Sequence record: OR062945.1
Direction: 5' to 3' (one strand)
DNA: 64,000 bases
Source: Escherichia phage 308Ecol101PP
Each line of letters opens with the position of its first letter. The first letter of the stretch is position 1. The notes beneath the pieces were generated by a model that saw nothing but the letters and a program-made list of their open reading frames with translations, was not told the origin of the DNA and searched no databases. The position numbers were made by a program, and so were the translations under genes. This document shows, piece by piece, positions 8,328-17,640 of the stretch.

Positions 8328-8831
8328 ATGAGTCTTTACACTGAACTGAATAAAAAATCTGAAGAATCCGCTGAAACTATTTTTAAAAACGTGCAAAAGC
8401 GTATTTTAGAAAAGATGTATAACACTGCAGCTAAAGGTGAAAAATCTTGCCGGTTTCCGATGAGGTGTTCTTCCGATTTATGCGCAAATACTATTGAATG
8501 GCTGGAAAGTGAAGGTCTTACGGTAGAGAAAAACCCGGCGTCTTCTATTGACAGTGAATCATATATTAGTATTTCTTGGGATAAATCAAGGGTAGAAGAG
8601 AAAGATGGTGATTGGGTTGTAGATGTTAAAACTTCTGATGGCGGACGTTCTGTTGAAGTTTCAGCTGTAGTTAAAGGTACCCACGAACAAAGGACTTGGG
8701 GATGGGGTGGTGAAGAAAAAGAAATTGTTCTTAGTGTGATTGCCAGGTCAACTAGTAATAAAATTGCACAAAGCATCATTGACGCTGCAATTGCTGAAGC
8801 AGAAAAAATTTGCAAAATTAAAAATAAATGA
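8328..8831 (+). CDS. Hypothetical protein
   Basis: Promoter cassette 8271 and SD GAGGAGA upstream; 167 aa. Confidence 0.65.
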   Translation: MSLYTELNKKSEESAETIFKNVQKRILEKMYNTAAKGEKSCRFPMRCSSDLCANTIEWLESEGLTVEKNPASSIDSESYISISWDKSRVEEKDGDWVVDVKTSDGGRSVEVSAVVKGTHEQRTWGWGGEEKEIVLSVIARSTSNKIAQSIIDAAIAEAEKICKIKNK

Positions 8832-8860
8832 TGTACAAACGCCAAGGACGGTGTTACTAT
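8832..8860 (+). promoter_or_regulatory. Early promoter (TGTACA -35, GTGTTACTAT -10)
   Basis: 17 nt spacer. Confidence 0.45.
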
Positions 8861-8889
8861 AGACCTATCAACTACAGAGGAGAAACAAA

Positions 8890-9161: not shown

Positions 9162-9187
9162 TAAACCACCAATTGAAAGGTAATAAT

Positions 9188-9781
9188 ATGAACACACTGA
9201 AGAAACTTGTTGAATTCATCCGCACTAAACTTGGTACTGCTATGGCTAAAAATCTGACTGTCGAAGAACAGTATAACGCAGCTGCAGATAAGTTGATTAC
9301 CCAAATCAAAGAACTAAAAACGGCTTCTGTTAAATCTATTAATGAAGAAAAACGTATTCGCGAACTTGTTATTGAAAAGAATAAGCAAGCCGCTTCTAAG
9401 GAACGTGAAATTCGTAAGCTCTTGGCTGAAGGACAAGATGTTACCATGCATGCCAAGCTTGGTCTTCTGTATCGTCGAACTGCCGAACAACTTAATACAA
9501 AAGCTGACGGGTACGCTGCTATGCGAATTGAAATTGCTCGTAAGGTGGTTGAACTTGATGATGCTCGTCAGAACCTGGCAATCAAACTCGAATACATTCG
9601 TGAAACTCGAGCAGCCAATGCCCTTGGTATCTCTACGGCTGATGATGTAATTGAAATCGCTGCACTGACTAAGGTTGATATCGAAGACACTCTGACTCGT
9701 GTTGAAACGTTCAATGGCACTCCAGCTGGTGTCGAAACCACTTCTGCTGATGTACAAGAATATATTAACTCTTTGAAATAA
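9188..9781 (+). CDS. Coiled-coil protein (PspA/IM30-like?)
   Basis: Promoter cassette 9126; long heptad-rich helical sequence; terminator hairpin at 9790. Confidence 0.65.
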
Positions 9782-9789
9782 AATAATAC

Positions 9790-9812
9790 GGAGGACTCCG
9801 GTCCTCCTTTTG
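9790..9812 (+). terminator. Rho-independent terminator
   Basis: GGAGGAC-TCCG-GTCCTCC then TTTTGG. Confidence 0.65.
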
Positions 9813-9830: not shown

Positions 9831-10427
9831 ATGCGAAACCAAAATAATGATATTGACTCAATGTTCGAAGAGTTCCGAGATAAGGTAAATCCACCTACGT
9901 CTTTAGTTGATTCATTACGATATGTTGCAACTGGACGTAAATGGTACTGGTCGTCTTCTTATGAGACAACTGAATATGCAAATAACCGAAAATCTTTATT
10001 AGCCCCAGGTATTATGATTCATGATATCGGAGCTATTGCTAAACTAGTTGCAGACCATGATATTAGATTCACTGATTTCATTGCTCCTACGTGGTCTGTT
10101 TGTTGTTTAAACACTGAATGGGACTACATCAGTGAACGTTCAGATGATTACGTAGGCTTTAGAGATAAGCTCTTAAGGTCTAACATGTTTTATATCGATA
10201 CAGAAGTTCTAGTCGATAATAAAAAATATTACTTTACGTTAATCGTCGATTCTGAAACTATGTATGAAGGCAAGCCTTTGCTTAAAAGAGTTGATGCTTT
10301 AAGTGCTATTGATGCGCTTTATGAAACTATGGTTGTTAGTCCTAATTTCACTAACAATTTAATCCTTGAGCAATTTATTATGGAATGTAGAGAATATGTC
10401 AAAGCCAACCCTATACATGCCAATTAA
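9831..10427 (+). CDS. Hypothetical protein; C-terminus carries QFIMECREY junction motif
   Basis: SD AGGAG then ATG 9831; ends overlapping next gene. Confidence 0.65.
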   Translation: MRNQNNDIDSMFEEFRDKVNPPTSLVDSLRYVATGRKWYWSSSYETTEYANNRKSLLAPGIMIHDIGAIAKLVADHDIRFTDFIAPTWSVCCLNTEWDYISERSDDYVGFRDKLLRSNMFYIDTEVLVDNKKYYFTLIVDSETMYEGKPLLKRVDALSAIDALYETMVVSPNFTNNLILEQFIMECREYVKANPIHAN

Positions 10428-10791
10428 GCCCTGGGCATACGAATACAAACGTAAATTAATTCCTAATGAAGTGTTGTTTGGTCCTATTTTAGCTTTAGCA
10501 TTTTTAATCTTTATGATTATAGGAGCTATTTTAGATTCCAATAAAGTTATATCGTCTGATGCAGCATTTTCATTAATGTTCGTCGCACCACTTATTGTAC
10601 CGTTTTTATTAATGCCTATTAATTGGGTAGGATATTGGCACCAAGGCCGTCATCACAGAGCCCGATTAAGAGAATGGAAAGTTCAGTGCGCAAAAGCCCA
10701 AGCTCAATATGATGAAGCTGTTAAAAAGTATGAATATGAAGAAGCTATGGAATTCGTTAAGGAAATAAGATGCAAAAGCCTCAACTCTTAA
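10396..10791 (+). CDS. Small membrane protein, FIKECR-tail family
   Basis: ATG directly after GAATGTAGAGAAT junction motif; two hydrophobic segments; C-terminal ...MEFVKEIRCK. Confidence 0.55.
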   Translation: MSKPTLYMPIKPWAYEYKRKLIPNEVLFGPILALAFLIFMIIGAILDSNKVISSDAAFSLMFVAPLIVPFLLMPINWVGYWHQGRHHRARLREWKVQCAKAQAQYDEAVKKYEYEEAMEFVKEIRCKSLNS

Positions 10792-11129
10792 CCGTATGGC
10801 CGTCTCTTGGTGAGAACATTCTAATTTTTATTATGAGTATTGGCATGGGATTTGCCTTTGGATTAGTTGGATTTCTTATTGACGGAGTTGTGTTAGGATT
10901 TATAGGGAATACAGGTGGATTCACAGACCAATGGCAGGACCTAAGATACACCCAAGCTTTTGCATCTATCGCATCATTTTGTACTGTAGTCTATTTTTAC
11001 TACGATTTTATAAACCATAACAAGAAAAATAAAAAGGTTTACGCTTCTCAAATGATTAGTTATAATGAACTCCTAGCTAGACGTGAAAATGAAACAATAG
11101 AAAACTTTATTAAGGAATGTAGAAAATGA
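10770..11129 (+). CDS. Small membrane protein, FIKECR-tail family
   Basis: Hydrophobic segments; C-terminal ...ENFIKECRK; ATGA overlap with downstream gene. Confidence 0.65.
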   Translation: MQKPQLLTVWPSLGENILIFIMSIGMGFAFGLVGFLIDGVVLGFIGNTGGFTDQWQDLRYTQAFASIASFCTVVYFYYDFINHNKKNKKVYASQMISYNELLARRENETIENFIKECRK

Positions 11130-11431
11130 GTAAGATTATTGAAATTAAAGTACCAGAGTTTAATGATGCTAAATCCGCTTCAGATGCAATTTATAAACTT
11201 CTGAATCAAGCTGAACGTATCGAAGAAGAAGCAACAAAGATCGCGGACCAATATGCTGTATCATTTTCTGTAGGTGATTATGGTAGCGGTCGTACTTATT
11301 ATCCTAAGGGTGAAATTGTATCCCAGTGGATGAAAGATGAAATTGAAAATAATGGTGGTGATGTTAAACGTGAAGGTAATGGTTACGTTATTACTGAAGG
11401 TGCTTGGGTTTCGTCTTCTGCGATGTGCTAA
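11126..11431 (+). CDS. Small protein, tandem paralog 1 (C-terminal GAWVSSSAMC)
   Basis: First of three adjacent ORFs sharing C-terminal G-W-x-S/A-S-S-x-x-C tail. Confidence 0.65.
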   Translation: MSKIIEIKVPEFNDAKSASDAIYKLLNQAERIEEEATKIADQYAVSFSVGDYGSGRTYYPKGEIVSQWMKDEIENNGGDVKREGNGYVITEGAWVSSSAMC

Positions 11432-11440
11432 GGAATCATT

Positions 11441-11713
11441 ATGTCTAAAGAACAAACCGAACTGGCTGAAGCCGTAGCAAAAATCTATGCAGCTATTGAG
11501 GCTGCCAAAGAAATTGCTGATAAACAAAACACAACATTCAACTTGTATCCAGCTTATGGTATGGGTGGAACCTATCATTCACCCGGACAACTTAAAGCCG
11601 ATCTTGAACGTTGTACAAAAAACGGCTATGCCGAATGGGCTGACGTTTACCAATACGACTACAACCTGAGCCTCGAAACTGGTGGTTGGATTGCATCTTC
11701 TCACACTTGCTAA
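11441..11713 (+). CDS. Small protein, tandem paralog 2 (C-terminal GGWIASSHTC)
   Basis: SD AAGGAA then ATG; shared C-terminal tail. Confidence 0.65.
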   Translation: MSKEQTELAEAVAKIYAAIEAAKEIADKQNTTFNLYPAYGMGGTYHSPGQLKADLERCTKNGYAEWADVYQYDYNLSLETGGWIASSHTC

Positions 11714-11722
11714 GGAAACCAT

Positions 11723-11920
11723 ATGTCTCGTGAATTAGATTGTGCTGTACGTACGGCAGTAGCTGCTCTGGAAAACCTGTTCCAAATTGCAACAGAAGAA
11801 CGCGAAGAAGTTACATTGTGGATTGAAGATAACGCAGGTCTGAATCTCCAGGACGCGATCTCATTATCCAATAATAGCATTACTGTTCAAGGCTGGGTAT
11901 CATCTAGTTATTCTTGCTAA
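11723..11920 (+). CDS. Small protein, tandem paralog 3 (C-terminal QGWVSSSYSC)
   Basis: SD AAGGAA then ATG; shared C-terminal tail. Confidence 0.6.
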   Translation: MSRELDCAVRTAVAALENLFQIATEEREEVTLWIEDNAGLNLQDAISLSNNSITVQGWVSSSYSC

Positions 11921-11924
11921 AACA

Positions 11925-11963
11925 GTTTACAACAAGATAGGGCTATGTTATAGTAGTCCTATC
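11925..11963 (+). promoter_or_regulatory. Early promoter stem-loop cassette (PeSL-like)
   Basis: GTTTAC; IR GATAGGGCTA / TAGTCCTATC. Confidence 0.6.
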
Positions 11964-11982
11964 AAATTAAATGGAGTCCACA

Positions 11983-12222
11983 ATGATTTATTACGAAAGT
12001 ATCGGAACCAAAGTGGTTGGTAAAACCATTACTCGCGAAAAGTTTGCAAAGATATTCGATATGCGTTATAAAAAATCTGAACACAAAGGCATCCGATTCG
12101 AAGATGCGCACTGTACAATTTGTCCTTATAATGAAGACATAAACGGTACAATCGTTCCATTGGTAGAGGCTTCACATGATGACCTCTGGGATGAATATAA
12201 TATCGCATGTCGTGAAATTTAA
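11983..12222 (+). CDS. Hypothetical protein
   Basis: Promoter cassette 11925; SD GGAG before ATG 11983 (alternative start 11971). Confidence 0.6.
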   Translation: MIYYESIGTKVVGKTITREKFAKIFDMRYKKSEHKGIRFEDAHCTICPYNEDINGTIVPLVEASHDDLWDEYNIACREI

Positions 12223-12246
12223 GTTAATTAATCCGAGGAAAATATT

Positions 12247-13203
12247 ATGATGTTAGTTATTGGTTCTCGTGCACTTCACTATCATGGTCTTATTGATTCT
12301 AACGCTATCAAAAATAGTGATTGGGACTTTATTGCAGACCAAGGTTCTTGGAATGCATTCAAAAATCAAATGATGGGTGTATATGTTCATCAAGATAACC
12401 CTGATGTCCAAGTTTTCAAATGCTTCCATAATGGACGCGAAACTCATTTTGAAGCATATATTGTTCCGGCAATCACTAATGTCCGTGAATTAGTCGGTGA
12501 ACTCACTCCTGAAGATTTCACGTCTTCTTATGACCTTTTAAAATACGCCAAGAAAAATTTGACTAAAGACCGTTTGAACGGGTTTTACTGGGCAACTCCT
12601 GAGATATGTCTTGCAATTAAGATGTCTCATCGTTTCAAGAAAAATAATCCATTCTTTTTAAAGACTATGAACCATATTCAGTATCTTCGTGGTAAAGGTG
12701 TTACACTGAACGATGAACTTACTGAAATTATGCTGAAACGCCAGAAAGAAACCTTGAACTATGCTCACCCGATTCTTGACACTTCTAAAAGTGCGTTCTT
12801 TAAAGATGACATCTATACATATGACCATGATACTATTCATGAAGCCATTGCACTAACAGACCGTCCGGCTTATACGTTTTATATGAAAGACGGTTCTGAA
12901 GTAATGACCTCACGCGAGAAGTTTGAATCACTTCCGGAAATGGTCAAATTGGCCGGTGTATATGAAGAAACATGTGTACTAGCGTTAGAACGTTCTCAGA
13001 TTCCTAATGGCTTTGAAATCCATCCTCGTGATAGTTTTATGATGGCATTAGAAAAGGTCTGTACTTCAATCACATCAGGCTGGTTCCGTGAGTATGCCTG
13101 GGAGAACTATGGCAAAGTAGTAAGTATGTATCAAAGCTTAGGACACGACGATTACGTCAAGCGTTTCAAACAAAATTTTCATATGGTAAAACCTTTCAAA
13201 TAA
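12247..13203 (+). CDS. Hypothetical protein (318 aa)
   Basis: Long ORF with SD GAGGAAA; no fold recognised. Confidence 0.7.
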   Translation: MMLVIGSRALHYHGLIDSNAIKNSDWDFIADQGSWNAFKNQMMGVYVHQDNPDVQVFKCFHNGRETHFEAYIVPAITNVRELVGELTPEDFTSSYDLLKYAKKNLTKDRLNGFYWATPEICLAIKMSHRFKKNNPFFLKTMNHIQYLRGKGVTLNDELTEIMLKRQKETLNYAHPILDTSKSAFFKDDIYTYDHDTIHEAIALTDRPAYTFYMKDGSEVMTSREKFESLPEMVKLAGVYEETCVLALERSQIPNGFEIHPRDSFMMALEKVCTSITSGWFREYAWENYGKVVSMYQSLGHDDYVKRFKQNFHMVKPFK

Positions 13204-13215
13204 TTTCACCAAACT

Positions 13216-13253
13216 GTTTACAAGGTCTGTAGTTGTTGATACTATAGACCTAT
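13216..13253 (+). promoter_or_regulatory. Early promoter stem-loop cassette (PeSL-like)
   Basis: GTTTAC; IR GGTCTGTAG / CTATAGACC. Confidence 0.55.
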
Positions 13254-13282
13254 CAAAACAAATGAGTGAATGGAGATACAAA

Positions 13283-13483
13283 ATGACTACTTTGAATAAA
13301 CGTTTCGGTAAAGCTAAACCTGGCTGTGCAGCAGAACGTCGTTACATTTTCGCTCAGTTAGAAGATGTAGAGTATCAGATTAATCAAGTTCACATTACTG
13401 GCATCGAGCCTATGTGTGGCCTTGAAGCTCTTCGTGAAGTTCGTGACGGGTATCGTCGTGATATCGAAGAAATGTCAAAATAA
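13283..13483 (+). CDS. Hypothetical protein
   Basis: Promoter cassette 13216; SD GGAGA before ATG 13283 (alternative start 13262). Confidence 0.55.
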   Translation: MTTLNKRFGKAKPGCAAERRYIFAQLEDVEYQINQVHITGIEPMCGLEALREVRDGYRRDIEEMSK

Positions 13484-13522
13484 GTGTACAAACTGATAGG
13501 GCTATGTTATAGTAGTCCTATT
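13484..13522 (+). promoter_or_regulatory. Early promoter stem-loop cassette (PeSL-like)
   Basis: GTGTAC; IR GATAGGGCTA / TAGTCCTATT. Confidence 0.55.
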
Positions 13523-13541
13523 AAAACATGAGGAGAATAAT

Positions 13542-13847
13542 ATGAAATTAACAGAAACCAACCGAATTGGTCTTTTAACAATACTTGCATCACCTTTTTA
13601 CGCAGCTCTTTCTGTTGCAGTATTACAAAAGGCTTACGATATGGATGGTGTTCCTGGTTTTGTATTCTTATCACCGTTTTTGCTATTCGTTGGAGCATTG
13701 TTATTATACGCCACGACTAGTTTCGACCATAATGTCTGGGTCAATTATAAATGTAAATTGTCTGAAGAAGAACACGCAGAAGCTCGTAAAAAAGCTATTG
13801 AATCTACCAATCTAGAAAATTTCATTAAAGAATGTCGAGGAAAATAA
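13542..13847 (+). CDS. Small membrane protein, FIKECR-tail family
   Basis: Promoter cassette 13484; hydrophobic segments; C-terminal ...ENFIKECRGK. Confidence 0.65.
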   Translation: MKLTETNRIGLLTILASPFYAALSVAVLQKAYDMDGVPGFVFLSPFLLFVGALLLYATTSFDHNVWVNYKCKLSEEEHAEARKKAIESTNLENFIKECRGK

Positions 13848-13848
13848 T

Positions 13849-14535
13849 ATGAATAGTTCTAAAGTGTTTAATAGTCAAGCTCGTGCAGTAGGTGGTTTTG
13901 CTCATGCGATTAAAAACGACCAGATTAAAAACGAGCCTATGTTCTTTAACTGCGATTTGAATTTTGCTTTTGATAATGGCGGCCCGATTACTCGTAGCTT
14001 TATCCAAAATCTTCCTGATGATTGGAAAGACTCGGATGTAGTATTTGATTCACGAGTCCACATGCTGATGCCTGGTTGGTATCCTGCTATTCCTGGATAT
14101 CACCATGATGACGTACCACGCCCAGATATTCCAACAGGACAACATTTTATTACTGCAGGACAACCTGATTATGACAACCCTCGTTACCATTCTGAACATA
14201 TTCTTGGTCTTGTTAACGCTGATGTGTGTCCTACTCATTTTGCAACAGGAACTGCAGAGTTCAGTCAGATTCCTGATGGCGAACTTATCTATCGCCAGTG
14301 GCACAAAGAAGTCCTCGAAAAAATTGAAAAAGGTGAACTAGAGAAATGGGAAGCTCCAGATCGTACTCTTCTTCAGTTTGATTGGCAAACATGGCACACT
14401 GGTTCTCGTGCAATTAGTAATGGATGGCGTTGGTTCGGACGTGTATCTCGTAATACAGACCGAGTTAAAAAGATTACCAATGAAATTCGTGTCAACGCTC
14501 AAGTTTATCTAGAATTCCCTATGGAAGGCTGGTAA
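13849..14535 (+). CDS. Hypothetical protein (228 aa)
   Basis: Starts immediately after FIKECR junction; no fold recognised. Confidence 0.7.
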   Translation: MNSSKVFNSQARAVGGFAHAIKNDQIKNEPMFFNCDLNFAFDNGGPITRSFIQNLPDDWKDSDVVFDSRVHMLMPGWYPAIPGYHHDDVPRPDIPTGQHFITAGQPDYDNPRYHSEHILGLVNADVCPTHFATGTAEFSQIPDGELIYRQWHKEVLEKIEKGELEKWEAPDRTLLQFDWQTWHTGSRAISNGWRWFGRVSRNTDRVKKITNEIRVNAQVYLEFPMEGW

Positions 14536-15026
14536 TGATTAACAAAACATATTGGTCTAATATAGACGATGACAACGAAGGTATTTCATACTATTCAGTA
14601 GATTGGACGGGATGTCCATCCTACTTAGTGAAACATATTTGCCAAGAATTTAAAATCGACCAGCCAGCAGGTATTATTGTGAACAGATACATTAATGGAT
14701 ATCAACCTATCGATGAAGTAATACGAACAACTCAAGCTGATCTTGAAAAGTTTTTCAATAAGTGCCAATGGATAACAGGATGGATTATATTTGTACCGTC
14801 GGTATGGTTTTTTAGTACTAAAGTAAGTGCCTTTGCTGTACTAGATATTATCGCTATCTTATTAGCATCTACTATTGTAAGTATTATTGGTGGTATTATT
14901 GGTGGAGGTACTGTAGGCATCATTATTAATCTTGTTAAAAGTAGTTTACAGGAACGTAAAGACAAGATAAAGGCCAAGAATAATGAAGTTGAACGTTTTA
15001 TTACCGAATGCAGGAATTTGAGATGA
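14535..15026 (+). CDS. Membrane protein, FIKECR-tail family
   Basis: Gly/Ile-rich transmembrane segment; C-terminal ...ERFITECRNLR. Confidence 0.65.
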   Translation: MINKTYWSNIDDDNEGISYYSVDWTGCPSYLVKHICQEFKIDQPAGIIVNRYINGYQPIDEVIRTTQADLEKFFNKCQWITGWIIFVPSVWFFSTKVSAFAVLDIIAILLASTIVSIIGGIIGGGTVGIIINLVKSSLQERKDKIKAKNNEVERFITECRNLR

Positions 15027-15259
15027 GTATAGCAATTTACATTAAATCAGAATCATGTGATAGTTATCTGTACACATACGATAAAGACGTGTCAGAAGAA
15101 AAAATCAAAGACGATCTTAATATGGACCTTGATATGTTCTGTCCTATTGCAGATTACAAACTTGCGGTCTCTAATAGTGAAAGTCCATCTAAAGAAACGC
15201 GCATTGAAGAATTTATGTCCGAATTAATGGCTAAATCATGGGACCGAGATGATGAGTAA
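15023..15259 (+). CDS. Hypothetical acidic protein
   Basis: ATG 15023 after GAATGCAGGAA junction (alternative start 15008). Confidence 0.55.
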   Translation: MSIAIYIKSESCDSYLYTYDKDVSEEKIKDDLNMDLDMFCPIADYKLAVSNSESPSKETRIEEFMSELMAKSWDRDDE

Positions 15260-15707
15260 GAAAAATAAAGTGAAAGAACTATCAGCCGGTATTATTTTCC
15301 TTACCGAAGATAAAGAATTATTCATGGGGCGTGTAACTGGTTCTCGTCCTAAAGGTTCTTTAGCTCATCGGTGGGATATTCCTAAAGGTCGTGTCGAGCC
15401 CGGTGAATCTCCTATCGAAGCCGCTATTCGTGAATGCGAAGAAGAAACTGGGTTTACACAATATGACCCTGCCTTCCTGAAAGACCTAGGTGAACATCAT
15501 TACTCAGACAATAAGAATATTCATCTGTTCCTATATACCATCCCTGTAGAGCACGAGCAATTCAGAAACAGTGTTTGTAATTCCTATCATACGTTCCCAG
15601 ACGGACGACAGATTCCTGAATTTGATGCATTCGCTTTAATTAAACCTTCTCAGTGGGAATATGTAATGGGCAAATCATTATATAAGGTGCTCACTACCAT
15701 CCTATAA
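15249..15707 (+). CDS. nudE: Nudix hydrolase NudE
   Basis: Nudix box GRVEPGESPIEAAIRECEEETG; position immediately upstream of lysozyme as in T4. Confidence 0.85.
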   Translation: MMSKKNKVKELSAGIIFLTEDKELFMGRVTGSRPKGSLAHRWDIPKGRVEPGESPIEAAIRECEEETGFTQYDPAFLKDLGEHHYSDNKNIHLFLYTIPVEHEQFRNSVCNSYHTFPDGRQIPEFDAFALIKPSQWEYVMGKSLYKVLTTIL

Positions 15708-15709
15708 GT

Positions 15710-15739
15710 AATAAATACCTCCTATAAACGTGGGAGGTA
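15710..15739 (+). promoter_or_regulatory. Lysozyme RBS-sequestering hairpin with embedded late-promoter-like AATAAATA
   Basis: TACCTCC (15716-15722) pairs with GGAGGTA (15733-15739), which contains the lysozyme SD GGAGG; 7/8 match to TATAAATA at 15710-15717. Confidence 0.45.
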
Positions 15740-15741
15740 TT

Positions 15742-16230
15742 ATGAATATATTTGAAATGCTTCGTAATGACGAAGGTCTTAGACTGACTTTATACAAAGA
15801 CACTGAAGGCTTTTGGACAATTGGCATAGGTCATTTAGTAACAAAGAACCCGTCTTTAGCTGTAGCTAAAGCTGAACTTGACAGAATGATCGGGCGTAAA
15901 TGCAACGGTACAATTACCCTTGATGAGGCTGAAAAGTTATTTAATGAAGACGTTGATAAAGCTGTTCGCGGAATCTTGGGTAATGTTAAACTTAAACCGG
16001 TATATGATTCTTTAGATGCGGTTCGTCGATGTGCATTGGTCAATATGGTCTTCCAAATGGGTGTAGCAGGCGTCGCTGGTTTTACTAATTCTCTTCGTAT
16101 GCTTCAACAGAAACGTTGGGATGAAGCGGCAGTAAATCTAGCACAATCTAAATGGTATCGTCAGACACCTAATCGCGCGAAACGCGTAATCTCAACATTT
16201 AAAACAGGAACTTGGAAAGCGTATATATGA
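15742..16230 (+). CDS. e: Endolysin (T4 lysozyme e)
   Basis: [32 protein letters not shown]...[27 protein letters not shown]: near-complete match to T4 lysozyme. Confidence 0.95.
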
Positions 16231-16508
16231 AAACATATAGTGAATTTTTATCAGAATCTATTCTTAACGAAGCTACTGACACATTTGCAACTAAGCTAGG
16301 TGCAGCTTTGGTTGAAGCTGAAAGTCTATTAGCACGTATTTCTGAACTTGCTAGTAAGATAGATACTCGCAAATTTGAGCGCACCAGTGATATCGTTAAG
16401 CTTGAAGCCTTGTTGCGTATGTGCGATAAACCGGAAGAAATCGCTAAGAACGGCTCGCTGATGAAACAACGTCTTGAAAAATATATTTCAGGCGCTTCAG
16501 AAAAATAG
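16227..16508 (+). CDS. Capsid-targeted internal-protein-like protein
   Basis: Starts [12 protein letters not shown] (CTS leader); ATGA overlap with lysozyme stop. Confidence 0.65.
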
Positions 16509-16509
16509 T

Positions 16510-16564
16510 GTTTACTTCCTCCAAGGGTTTTGATACTATACATTCATCAACTACTTGGAGGAAA
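16510..16564 (+). promoter_or_regulatory. Early promoter cassette; IR pairs an anti-SD segment with the denV SD
   Basis: GTTTAC; TTCCTCCAAG (16517-16526) complementary to CTTGGAGGAA (16555-16564), which holds the SD; -10 TACTAT inside the loop. Confidence 0.6.
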
Positions 16565-16566
16565 TT

Positions 16567-16980
16567 ATGACTCGTATCAATTTAACACTTGTTTCTGAAC
16601 TGACCGACCAACATCTTATGGCTGAGTATCGTGAATTACCACGCGTATTTGGTGCAGTCCGTAAACATGTTCAAAACGGTAAACGTGTAAAGGATTTTAA
16701 AATCTCTCCAACATTTATCTTAGGCACAGGTCACGTAACATTCTTTTACGACAAACTCGAATTTTTACGTTTACGTCAAATCGAGCTAATCGCCGAATGC
16801 TTGAAACGTGGTTTCAAAATCAAGGACACATCTGTCCAAGATATTTCCGACATCCCTGCCGAATTTCGTAATAATTATGTCCCGTCCGAAGCGTCCATTG
16901 CGATAAGTCAAGCACGCTTAGATGAAAAAATTGCTCAGCGCCCGACTTGGTACAAATACTATGGTAAATCAATTTACTAA
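16567..16980 (+). CDS. denV: Endonuclease V (pyrimidine dimer DNA glycosylase)
   Basis: [35 protein letters not shown]...[10 protein letters not shown] matches T4 DenV. Confidence 0.95.
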
Positions 16981-16986
16981 GGAAAA

Positions 16987-17247
16987 ATGAAAATGTATCA
17001 AGAATTTATCGCTGAAGCAGATGCCAAAGGTCCTAAATTTAAAGTTAAAGCTTTCATTGGTGATGCGGAAGACTTTGGCTCATTAAAACGTAATGGGTAT
17101 TCTTTCTTAGGTGGCGATGGTAAAGAAATCAACACCTATGCAAAACGTAGTGAAATTGCTTATGTTGTAGCAAGCCCTAAAGTAGATGTTGACGATATTG
17201 GATACGATTTTAACAACTTTGGAATTATTTCTGGCGGTAAAGCTTAA
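16987..17247 (+). CDS. Internal protein (ipII/ipIII-like), capsid-targeted
   Basis: Starts MKMYQEFIAEA (CTS leader); adjacent to denV as T4 ipII/ipIII. Confidence 0.65.
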   Translation: MKMYQEFIAEADAKGPKFKVKAFIGDAEDFGSLKRNGYSFLGGDGKEINTYAKRSEIAYVVASPKVDVDDIGYDFNNFGIISGGKA

Positions 17248-17310: not shown

Positions 17311-17640
17311 ATGAAAACGTATCAAGAGTTTATCACTGAAGTTACATTATCTGCGGAACAGAAAGCTGCTATCGAAGAAGGTAAAAATCCCAAAGTAACA
17401 TATAAAGTAAATGGTAAAGGCGTTTTTGATGGCTTGGTTCAAGACCCTGAATTGAAAAAAGCTCTTTCTAAAACTAATGCGTACTTTGCTCCTAAATTTA
17501 ACGCAGCCGGTGTACTTATTGGATTGGATGTATTCAACTCTAAAGGTGTTCTATCTAATGCCTTTGGTTATGCCGCTAACAAAATTACCAAAGCCGAATG
17601 GGAATCCAATACCAAACAAGCTCAAAAGCCTAGAGTATAA
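17311..17640 (+). CDS. Internal protein (ipII/ipIII-like), capsid-targeted
   Basis: Starts MKTYQEFITEV (CTS leader); promoter 17251. Confidence 0.65.
   Translation: MKTYQEFITEVTLSAEQKAAIEEGKNPKVTYKVNGKGVFDGLVQDPELKKALSKTNAYFAPKFNAAGVLIGLDVFNSKGVLSNAFGYAANKITKAEWESNTKQAQKPRV

Follow-up and report, generated by a model that had tools for sequence, protein, structure and literature searches.

Several early proteins of a T4-like phage, soluble as well as membrane-bound, end in the same short peptide. In Escherichia phage 308Ecol101PP (sequence record OR062945.1), of which a stretch of 64,000 nucleotides (nt), here called the window, was analysed, five genes between positions 9831 and 15026 encode proteins with a common C-terminal tail, in its commonest form FI(K/T)ECR. 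These genes, named A to E in order of position, are the homologues of T4 e.5, e.4 and e.3, a gene with no T4 counterpart, and e.2. Comparison of the sequences indicates that the tail is conserved at the peptide level by selection on the peptide itself, and that it is a cluster-specific tag on proteins without demonstrable homology to each other. Its two middle codons, which are not conserved as residues, are dual coding, contributing at many junctions to the ribosome-binding site (RBS) of the next gene.

The C-terminal motif and its conservation

All five open reading frames (ORFs) listed in a first-pass annotation of this DNA, which had proposed a family of small membrane proteins sharing a C-terminal tail, are present. 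A (9831–10427, + strand) encodes a protein of 198 amino acids (aa) with no transmembrane (TM) or other hydrophobic segment, in keeping with its description there as soluble and as carrying a QFIMECRE-type tail. The sequence EQFIMECRE lies 11 codons upstream of the stop, with FIMECR at 10374–10391, and the 11-codon extension EYVKANPIHAN that follows the tail overlaps the start of B. The products of B (10396–10791), C (10770–11129), D (13542–13847) and E (14535–15026), all on the + strand, are 131, 119, 101 and 163 aa long. Each has two TM segments, bearing out the hydrophobic segments claimed for them, and then a charged C-terminal segment of 30–54 residues. The shared FI(K/T)ECR ending ascribed to these four proteins was found in three: C ends in ENFIKECRK (FIKECR at 11106–11123), D in ENFIKECRGK (FIKECR at 13821–13838), and E in ERFITECRNLR (FITECR at 14997–15014). 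B instead ends in EFVKEIRCKSLNS, with the variant FVKEIR at 10753–10770 followed by a Cys at 10771–10773. The DNA string quoted for the tail, TTTATTAAGGAATGTAGA, is exact for C, and the other copies differ from it at synonymous and non-synonymous sites.

A six-frame translation of the window contains four occurrences of F[IVLM]xEC[RK], confined to A, C, D and E and all no more than 11 codons from the stop. Residue frequencies predict 0.22 matches, and 300 shuffles gave a mean of 0.12 with a maximum of 2. A chance origin is hence excluded, as four matches stand against 0.1–0.2 expected, all C-terminal and within one 5-kb stretch. In its general form the motif reads Phi(-3)-x-x-[FW]-[IVL]-x-x-C-[RK], where Phi is a hydrophobic residue and the aromatic residue is position 0, and in all copies it lies within 16 residues of the C-terminus. 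A variant form is found in the e.4 family, to which B belongs, where I, S or V takes the place of Cys at +4. In the complete T4 genome, C-terminal copies of this core are confined to e.5, e.3 and a remnant of e.2; a single internal match, in 30.3, is chance-like. An 83-aa ORF at 11971–12222 (...YNIACREI) was considered as a degenerate member and rejected, its spacing being wrong, I/V being absent at +1, and C-R not being conserved in its homologues.

The window is assigned by its sequence to a Mosigvirus (RB69/ST0-like), a T4-like coliphage. It is 99% identical to Escherichia phage ST0 across 5.3 kb and 95–97% identical to many other RB69-like phages (genus Mosigvirus, family Straboviridae). 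In T4, the corresponding block starts at the tRNA genes and continues through e.8...e.2 to nudE and e. Genes A to E lie on one strand throughout, between the tRNA/e.6 block and nudE-e-denV; tRNA genes are found upstream of the locus in phage 55. Correspondences were obtained by translating the T4 locus, and A, B, C and E are homologous in sequence to the e.5, e.4, e.3 and e.2 families, respectively. A is 47–48% identical to T4-type e.5, whose T4 tail is EKFVKECREYVKA, and matches phrog_2607. B aligns end to end with T4 e.4, which ends in KFVKESRCKSQS. Its start is placed at ATG 10396 rather than 10417 because the N-terminus MSKP is shared with T4; in phage 55 and JK42 the annotated e.4 start is the ATG that corresponds to 10417. 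C is 36% identical to T4 e.3 (tail KEFVIDCRKIK) and has tblastn matches in 694 phage records. D appears to be restricted to Mosigvirus, with tblastn matches only in 149 Mosigvirus-type records at identities of at least 87%, and weakly matches the e.2-family phrog_2203. E is the full-length form of T4 e.2, which is truncated and has no annotated tail. Its N-terminal domain, which can be aligned both to T4 e.2 and to the 162-aa full-length e.2 of Tequatrovirus, is followed by two TM segments and a stalk.

Existing annotations call the genes of this cluster 'hypothetical' or 'membrane protein'. Precomputed Pfam families PF26876 and PF26896 are carried by relatives of the cluster proteins, the latter (Phage_T4_Y06M) by relatives of E. 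Local Pfam, NCBIfam, PADLOC and PDB sequence searches gave no match for A to E, the neighbouring e.6 homologue, or a 228-aa protein encoded upstream of E. With A as the query, a word-indexed search of proteins went no further than close relatives. A 'sulfurtransferase' label attached to the two-TM e.4 homologue in JK42 and some other records is supported by no family model and was treated as spurious.

An IMG/VR scan with an e.3 alignment recovered five loci only, and the GenBank phage collection was then used. The loci compared were those of T4, three Tequatroviruses with intact e.2, one T4-like contig without e.2, five other Mosigviruses, Gaprivervirus VR20, Dhakavirus QL01, Kanagawavirus Q7622, and three metagenomic contigs (L014, L015, L017). 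Every e.5, e.3 and e.2 orthologue among them ends in the motif, with bodies only ~25–48% identical. F, I/V, C and R are retained in the five named genera and in the metagenomic relatives. The tails are RFIAECREY..., TFIKECKS and SFIEECRK in VR20, RFITECREY..., TFIKECKS and EFIEECRK in QL01, and DFVDQCRAN... and KFVKGCRNGRRS in Q7622. An exhaustive HMMER search with E found nine deep representatives of e.2, only 25–30% identical to E, and all nine end in [FW]-I-x-x-C-R-[KRN]. An 11-sequence e.2 alignment has only nine invariant columns, and the I, C and R of the tail supply three of them. When 9-residue blocks are ranked by conservation, the tail comes first in the alignments of e.5 and e.3 and third in those of e.4 and e.2.

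The codons behind these residues vary. Among 21 genus-level tail copies, Phe is encoded by TTT (16) and TTC (5), Cys by TGT (10) and TGC (7), and Arg by AGA (7), AGG (2), CGA (3), CGT (6) and CGC (1), with Lys (AAA) in its place twice. Within genera, differences at core positions are synonymous only. Two adjacent tails in Q7622, those of e.2 and its neighbour e2b (FVKGCRNGR), are separated by four synonymous and no non-synonymous changes. That core residues are kept across genera and unrelated families with all synonymous codons in use is the mark of selection on the peptide, and supports the first of two explanations offered for the tail, a functional peptide motif. The tail is also retained before a variety of next genes (e.2, an SSSxxC gene, e.4, e.3, a 78-aa gene, e2b, and nudE). 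As it is kept whichever gene comes next, it is a property of the upstream protein; the loss of the tail next to a different downstream gene, named beforehand as the observation that would refute the proposal, was seen at none of these junctions.

A shared tag and its possible partner

Profile comparisons of the bodies found no homology between the families. With tails removed, hhalign gave probabilities of at most 4% for all pairs of e5, e4, e3, e2 and D; with tails included, the matches of e.5 consist solely of nine tail residues. The family alignments used were small (1–5 sequences), which limits the sensitivity of this result. The one exception is a pair in Kanagawavirus Q7622, where a 106-aa gene, e2b, directly follows e.2 (locus L011, 8001–8811) and duplicates its TM and tail half. 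Here hhalign gave 96% with the tail and 36% without. The codons for R-N-G in the e.2 tail contain the start codon of e2b, and their ...CG(A/T)AATGG(G/C)CGTA string recurs after the e2b tail, before nudE. Soluble carriers are not limited to e.5 either: proteins of 92, 98 and 116 aa end in SFIQMCRGNQNVS, TFIKMCRGNQNVT and LFLEYCRSDVQL, and their bodies are unrelated. The notion of a family of small membrane proteins therefore holds for B to E as membrane proteins, but soluble carriers exist and the membrane bodies have no detectable homology.

The main rival explanation is common descent, in which e.2, e.3, e.4, D and, by fusion, e.5 would derive from tandem duplication of one two-TM gene. The bodies would have diverged while each protein kept the tail for its own folding, stability or membrane-proximal role. 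B to E do share an architecture of two TM segments, charged linker and tail, the genes are tandem and on the same strand, D has its weak match to the e.2 PHROG, and Q7622 e2b, a copy of the C-terminal half of e2, shows that local duplication occurs here. However, no pair other than e2/e2b has detectable homology outside the tail, the tail is found on two or more kinds of soluble protein whose bodies are unrelated, and an intramolecular role hardly explains why the same four residues should be fixed in different bodies. Common descent is accordingly judged unlikely, while being the rival that survives best.

The position of the tail within the membrane members was approached by modelling and residue composition. 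In an AlphaFold2 (AF2) model of E, built from the 11-sequence alignment with a predicted local distance difference test score (pLDDT) of 71, the second TM segment continues as a single helix (residues 101–161) through the charged linker to the tail, suggesting a helical stalk. The tail of A is placed in a terminal helix (177–192) in a model with a pLDDT of 61. A fold search with this model raised small alarmone synthetases, but the best matches (E-value 0.03, template-modelling score 0.2) are not significant and the model is poor, and the identification was dropped. The C-terminal segments of the membrane members contain 8–11 Lys and Arg residues versus 0–1 in the loops between TM segments, so that by the positive-inside rule the tail probably lies in the cytoplasm. 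The 10–12 residues that precede the motif have a strongly polar character, and a comparison of 27 sequences showed no enrichment in any heptad register (0.26–0.46 hydrophobic in each). E alone has a perfect series at the a position (L, I, V, C). A long coiled-coil stalk was rejected as heptad periodicity is not general; with polar preceding residues and no heptads, the motif would instead form a compact hydrophobic and basic tip.

The reading favoured here is that the tail is a short cytoplasmic docking motif through which the proteins of the cluster bind a common partner, a hypothesis considered on balance probable. The motif would mark the products of one T-even-type early cluster, namely e.5, e.4, e.3, e.2 and lineage-specific extras such as D. 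In membrane members it would form the tip of a polar helical stalk extending from the second TM helix into the cytoplasm, and in soluble members a C-terminal helix. These co-transcribed and partly translationally coupled products, unrelated in sequence, would then dock through their tails to one partner, which may be each other, with soluble proteins recruited to the membrane members, or a single phage or host target. As the genes are packed end to start, about half of the copies have their two non-conserved middle codons co-opted to provide the Shine–Dalgarno (SD) sequence for the gene that follows.

A comparable arrangement is provided by the T4 sliding clamp gp45, which is bound by the C-terminal tails of gp43, gp33 and gp55, docking peptides for one hub. 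Here as there, otherwise unrelated proteins have a short hydrophobic or amphipathic motif at the C-terminus, which lets the clamp partners bind one common surface and would do the same for the cluster proteins. The tails described here differ from the clamp-binding tails in sequence, their carriers are non-essential and mostly membrane-anchored, and their hub is hypothetical.

Several points weigh against docking to a shared partner. The common partner is itself hypothetical, and the structure models are of low to moderate confidence. The e.4 family has no Cys at +4 (a Cys is found at +6 in T4 and Mosigvirus, and none in VR20), which implies that Cys is no universal requirement. Natural phages can also do without these genes, as e.3 is deleted in the Mosigviruses phiC120 and FL31 and e.2 is broken in T4. 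Lastly, a separate intramolecular role in each protein would yield the same conservation pattern.

Translation signals within the tail codons

The tail had also been claimed to coincide with the RBS of the next gene. With the SD required to lie 5–11 nt upstream of the next start and inside motif codons, this was borne out for B, C, D and E. In B, AAGGA at 10759–10763 (K-E codons) is the SD for C, and in C the same sequence at 11112–11116, again in the K-E codons, serves a gene starting at 11126. D encodes K-E as AAA GAA, with no SD; the SD that serves the gene at 13849 is GAGGA at 13837–13841, in the R-G codons. In E, AGGA at 15012–15015 (R-N codons) precedes a gene at 15023. No SD is recognisable at the A/B junction. 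Several junctions have ATGA start/stop overlaps.

A survey of 21 junctions placed the SD in codons +2/+3 in 11, in the R-x codons (+5/+6) in 5, and 10–50 nt downstream of the motif in 4, with 2 unrecognisable. The placement follows the distance to the next gene. Where the next start is 17–22 nt from the Phe codon, 15 of 17 junctions have AAGGA, GAGGA or AAGAGG in codons +2/+3, and the dipeptides encoded there are of six kinds (KE, EE, KG, EG, KR, KD). Where it is 26 nt or more away, none of 11 junctions has the SD in these codons. As SD spelling depends on this distance, the two x positions are shaped by the downstream SD and the four flanking positions (0, +1, +4, +5) by the protein. The Glu of ...ECR is then partly a by-product of AAG-GAA and GAG-GAA. 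The overlap with the RBS is real, but from these sequences it is secondary to selection on the peptide.

These junctions resemble the coupling known from packed phage early genes in that the final codons of one gene contain the SD and start of the next, ATGA overlaps included. They differ in that the SD here fills two variable positions of a separately selected peptide motif. The locus is a clean natural case of dual coding, a 6-codon motif in which two codons are shaped by the RBS and four by the protein, and can help to calibrate methods for inferring selection where signals overlap.

The same observations bear on a reading of the conserved string as primarily the downstream initiation region (U-rich enhancer, SD, and spacer), with the peptide as its by-product. 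The 15 of 17 close junctions with six encoded dipeptides, the R-x placement in 5 of 21, and the ATGA overlaps would all be expected from such an RNA element. It accounts for the two middle codons only, however, as the F, I/V, C and R codons vary synonymously and Arg alternates between the AGR and CGN families. Changes from I to V and from F to W are conservative for a protein but not for RNA. The motif is intact at the four junctions with the SD 10–50 nt past it, and also in the 116-aa protein of QL01, where the next gene is 79 nt away past a ~55-nt intergenic spacer; the SD-free AAA GAA of D points the same way. For the core residues an RNA-level origin is already largely refuted, and as an account of the whole string it is very improbable.

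Capsid targeting, gene shuffling and the surrounding region

The closest precedent for a terminal tag in this region is the capsid targeting sequence (CTS) of T4 internal head proteins. In the CTS of IPIII, MKTYQEFIAE, residues 4 (Y) and 7 (F) act in targeting and 8 (I) and 10 (E) in processing by gp21, which cleaves after L/I-x-E; Alt and gp21 are also processed C-terminally (PMC9026906). Like the tail, the CTS of IPI, IPII, IPIII and their relatives is a terminal peptide of ~10 residues on unrelated, fast-evolving proteins of the same hyperplastic early region. Both have hydrophobic-x-x-F-I spacing, and an address or docking role is known for the CTS (PMC9026906, PMC3012670) and proposed for the tail. 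In contrast, the CTS is N-terminal, starts MKTY, depends on its E for cleavage by gp21, and is nearly invariant in each of the genera examined, whereas the tail is C-terminal, has invariant F, I, C and R with a dispensable E, and is found on membrane as well as soluble proteins.

A C-terminal analogue of the CTS would target the prohead core or gp21 through Phi-x-x-F-I-x-E|C-R and be cut after Glu. In the E. coli phage genera the hydrophobic residue, F, I/V and E occur at exact CTS spacings, proheads assemble on the inner membrane, and the C-terminal processing of Alt and gp21 is a precedent. Three genes with CTS-type leaders, for internal head proteins flanking denV, lie 1–2 kb downstream (16227–16508, 16987–17247, and 17311–17640). 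No MKTY-type leader was found, the motif lying near the C-terminus in all copies. Nor does an L/I-x-E site accompany the motif wherever it occurs. The E. coli phage genera have E or D at +3, but none of the five Kanagawavirus tails does, and 8 of the 9 deep e.2 representatives have G, D or R there, with P0024 alone having E; the CTS of the same Kanagawavirus phage retains its E. The SD, moreover, accounts for most of the occurrence of E(+3). The invariant C-R has no CTS counterpart, a cut after E would remove only 2–5 residues and leave the 'CTS' on the protein, and integral membrane proteins are unlikely cargo for the prohead core. With the tail at the opposite terminus as well, such an analogue is very improbable.

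The second explanation in the first-pass annotation, a linker for recombination and translation, survives in part. Its translational side is limited to the two middle codons, as at the 15 of 17 tight junctions, and its exchange of gene cassettes in frame is unsupported. The region is hyperplastic: T4 lacks a ~2.7-kb block of six to eight genes between e.3 and e.2, the right-hand end of which is at the e.2 start. The tails share at most ~10 nt of exact identity, and the best pair, A and C, is identical at 20 of 22 nt, a likeness attributed to codon bias at shared residues. The e.3 genes of phiC120 (L008, 6491–6590) and FL31 (L009, 6500–6599) have an internal frameshifting deletion of ~250 base pairs that leaves a non-functional 3' remnant, from which it follows that phages in nature can dispense with e.3. 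In FL31, e.2 is altered too, and the 78-aa gene that would precede nudE is missing.

In T4, e.2 is decayed by stop codons, while other Tequatroviruses have an intact 162-aa gene. The annotated 'gap' before nudE still reads ...MPWRLRRQQKIFDEKKYAQNLNNFITECRKLK; past two in-frame stops (67472–67651, between e.2 and nudE), a 36-aa ORF ends in ...NNFITECRKLK. This corrects the annotation of T4 e.2 to that of a decayed gene. It also places the first annotated ATG of T4 nudE (MQEIKMKT...) inside the E-C codons of the remnant tail. The true nudE start is probably the second ATG (MKTLSAG), and the same probably applies in the window to the gene that follows E, with its start at 15023 rather than 15008.

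Four copies of a 48-nt cassette (8825–8872, 11919–11966, 13210–13257, and 13478–13525), 60–85% identical, stand at the borders of variable gene blocks. Each combines GTTTAC...TATAGT, which resembles a T4 early promoter, with an inverted repeat (TAGGGCTATGTTATAGTAGTCCTA). They look like promoter-early stem-loop (PeSL) elements, a published mechanism of modular gene shuffling in T4-type phages (PMC2839356, PMC4122927). PeSL cassettes and tails are both repeated sequences at gene boundaries in hyperplastic regions, but the former are intergenic, at least ~50 nt long, and conserved as DNA, whereas the tails are coding, conserved as peptide, and share ~10 nt of exact identity. That the tails serve as homology for in-frame cassette exchange, as the hyperplasticity of the region and the A/C pair might suggest, is extremely unlikely, given such short runs, the breakpoints of the phiC120 and FL31 deletions, T4 e.2 and the 2.7-kb indel, none of which is tail to tail, the unchanged order of e.5, e.4 and e.3 wherever these genes are present (e.4 is missing in QL01), and the PeSL-like cassettes that already flank the variable blocks.

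Other features surround the cluster. Upstream lies the e.6 homologue (9173–9781). It was considered as a PspA/IM30-like protein with the tails as its membrane docks, an idea dropped as Pfam support is absent. Between it and A, a GC-rich hairpin at 9790–9807 (GGAGGACTCCGGTCCTCC) followed by TTTT is probably a terminator or RNA-stability element dividing transcription units. Three tandem small paralogues at 11126–11431, 11441–11713, and 11723–11920 (101, 90 and 65 aa) all end in G-x-W-[VI]-x-S-S-x-x-C, so that the region has, in phrog_899, a second family whose conserved C-terminus includes a Cys. In these tandem genes, TAAGGAAnCAtnATG after the stop serves the next copy, and VR20, QL01, Q7622 and contig L015 have 4–6 copies. 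The 228-aa protein (13849–14535) is encoded directly upstream of e.2 in every non-T4 genome examined and is missing in T4; its last 30 residues (VSRNTDRVKKITNEIRVNAQVYLEFPMEGW) are identical in four genera. Downstream of the cluster are nudE (15249–15707), lysozyme e (15730–16230), and denV (16555–16980).

Literature searches for e.2–e.5 or for the motif found nothing. The shared tag thus seems undescribed in the databases and literature searched, the gene families themselves being known T4 ones. A more specific form of the docking proposal, itself distinctly unlikely, is that the tail is an address tag for an assembly at the inner membrane early in T-even infection, joining soluble and membrane members by their C-terminal tips. 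The assembly might be held by the single conserved Cys of each chain, for example in a shared metal site, or by a phage or host hub. If true, the tail would be a C-terminal counterpart of the CTS, and new genes would join the complex by acquiring nine codons. As these nine codons carry the SD, each new member would also bring the translation signals for the next gene. The tail gives a concrete handle on T4 e.2–e.5, which are among the many conserved early genes of T-even phages, as its peptide can be used as bait for the partner. The tag also makes a testable prediction, that the proteins of this cluster act together at the inner membrane.

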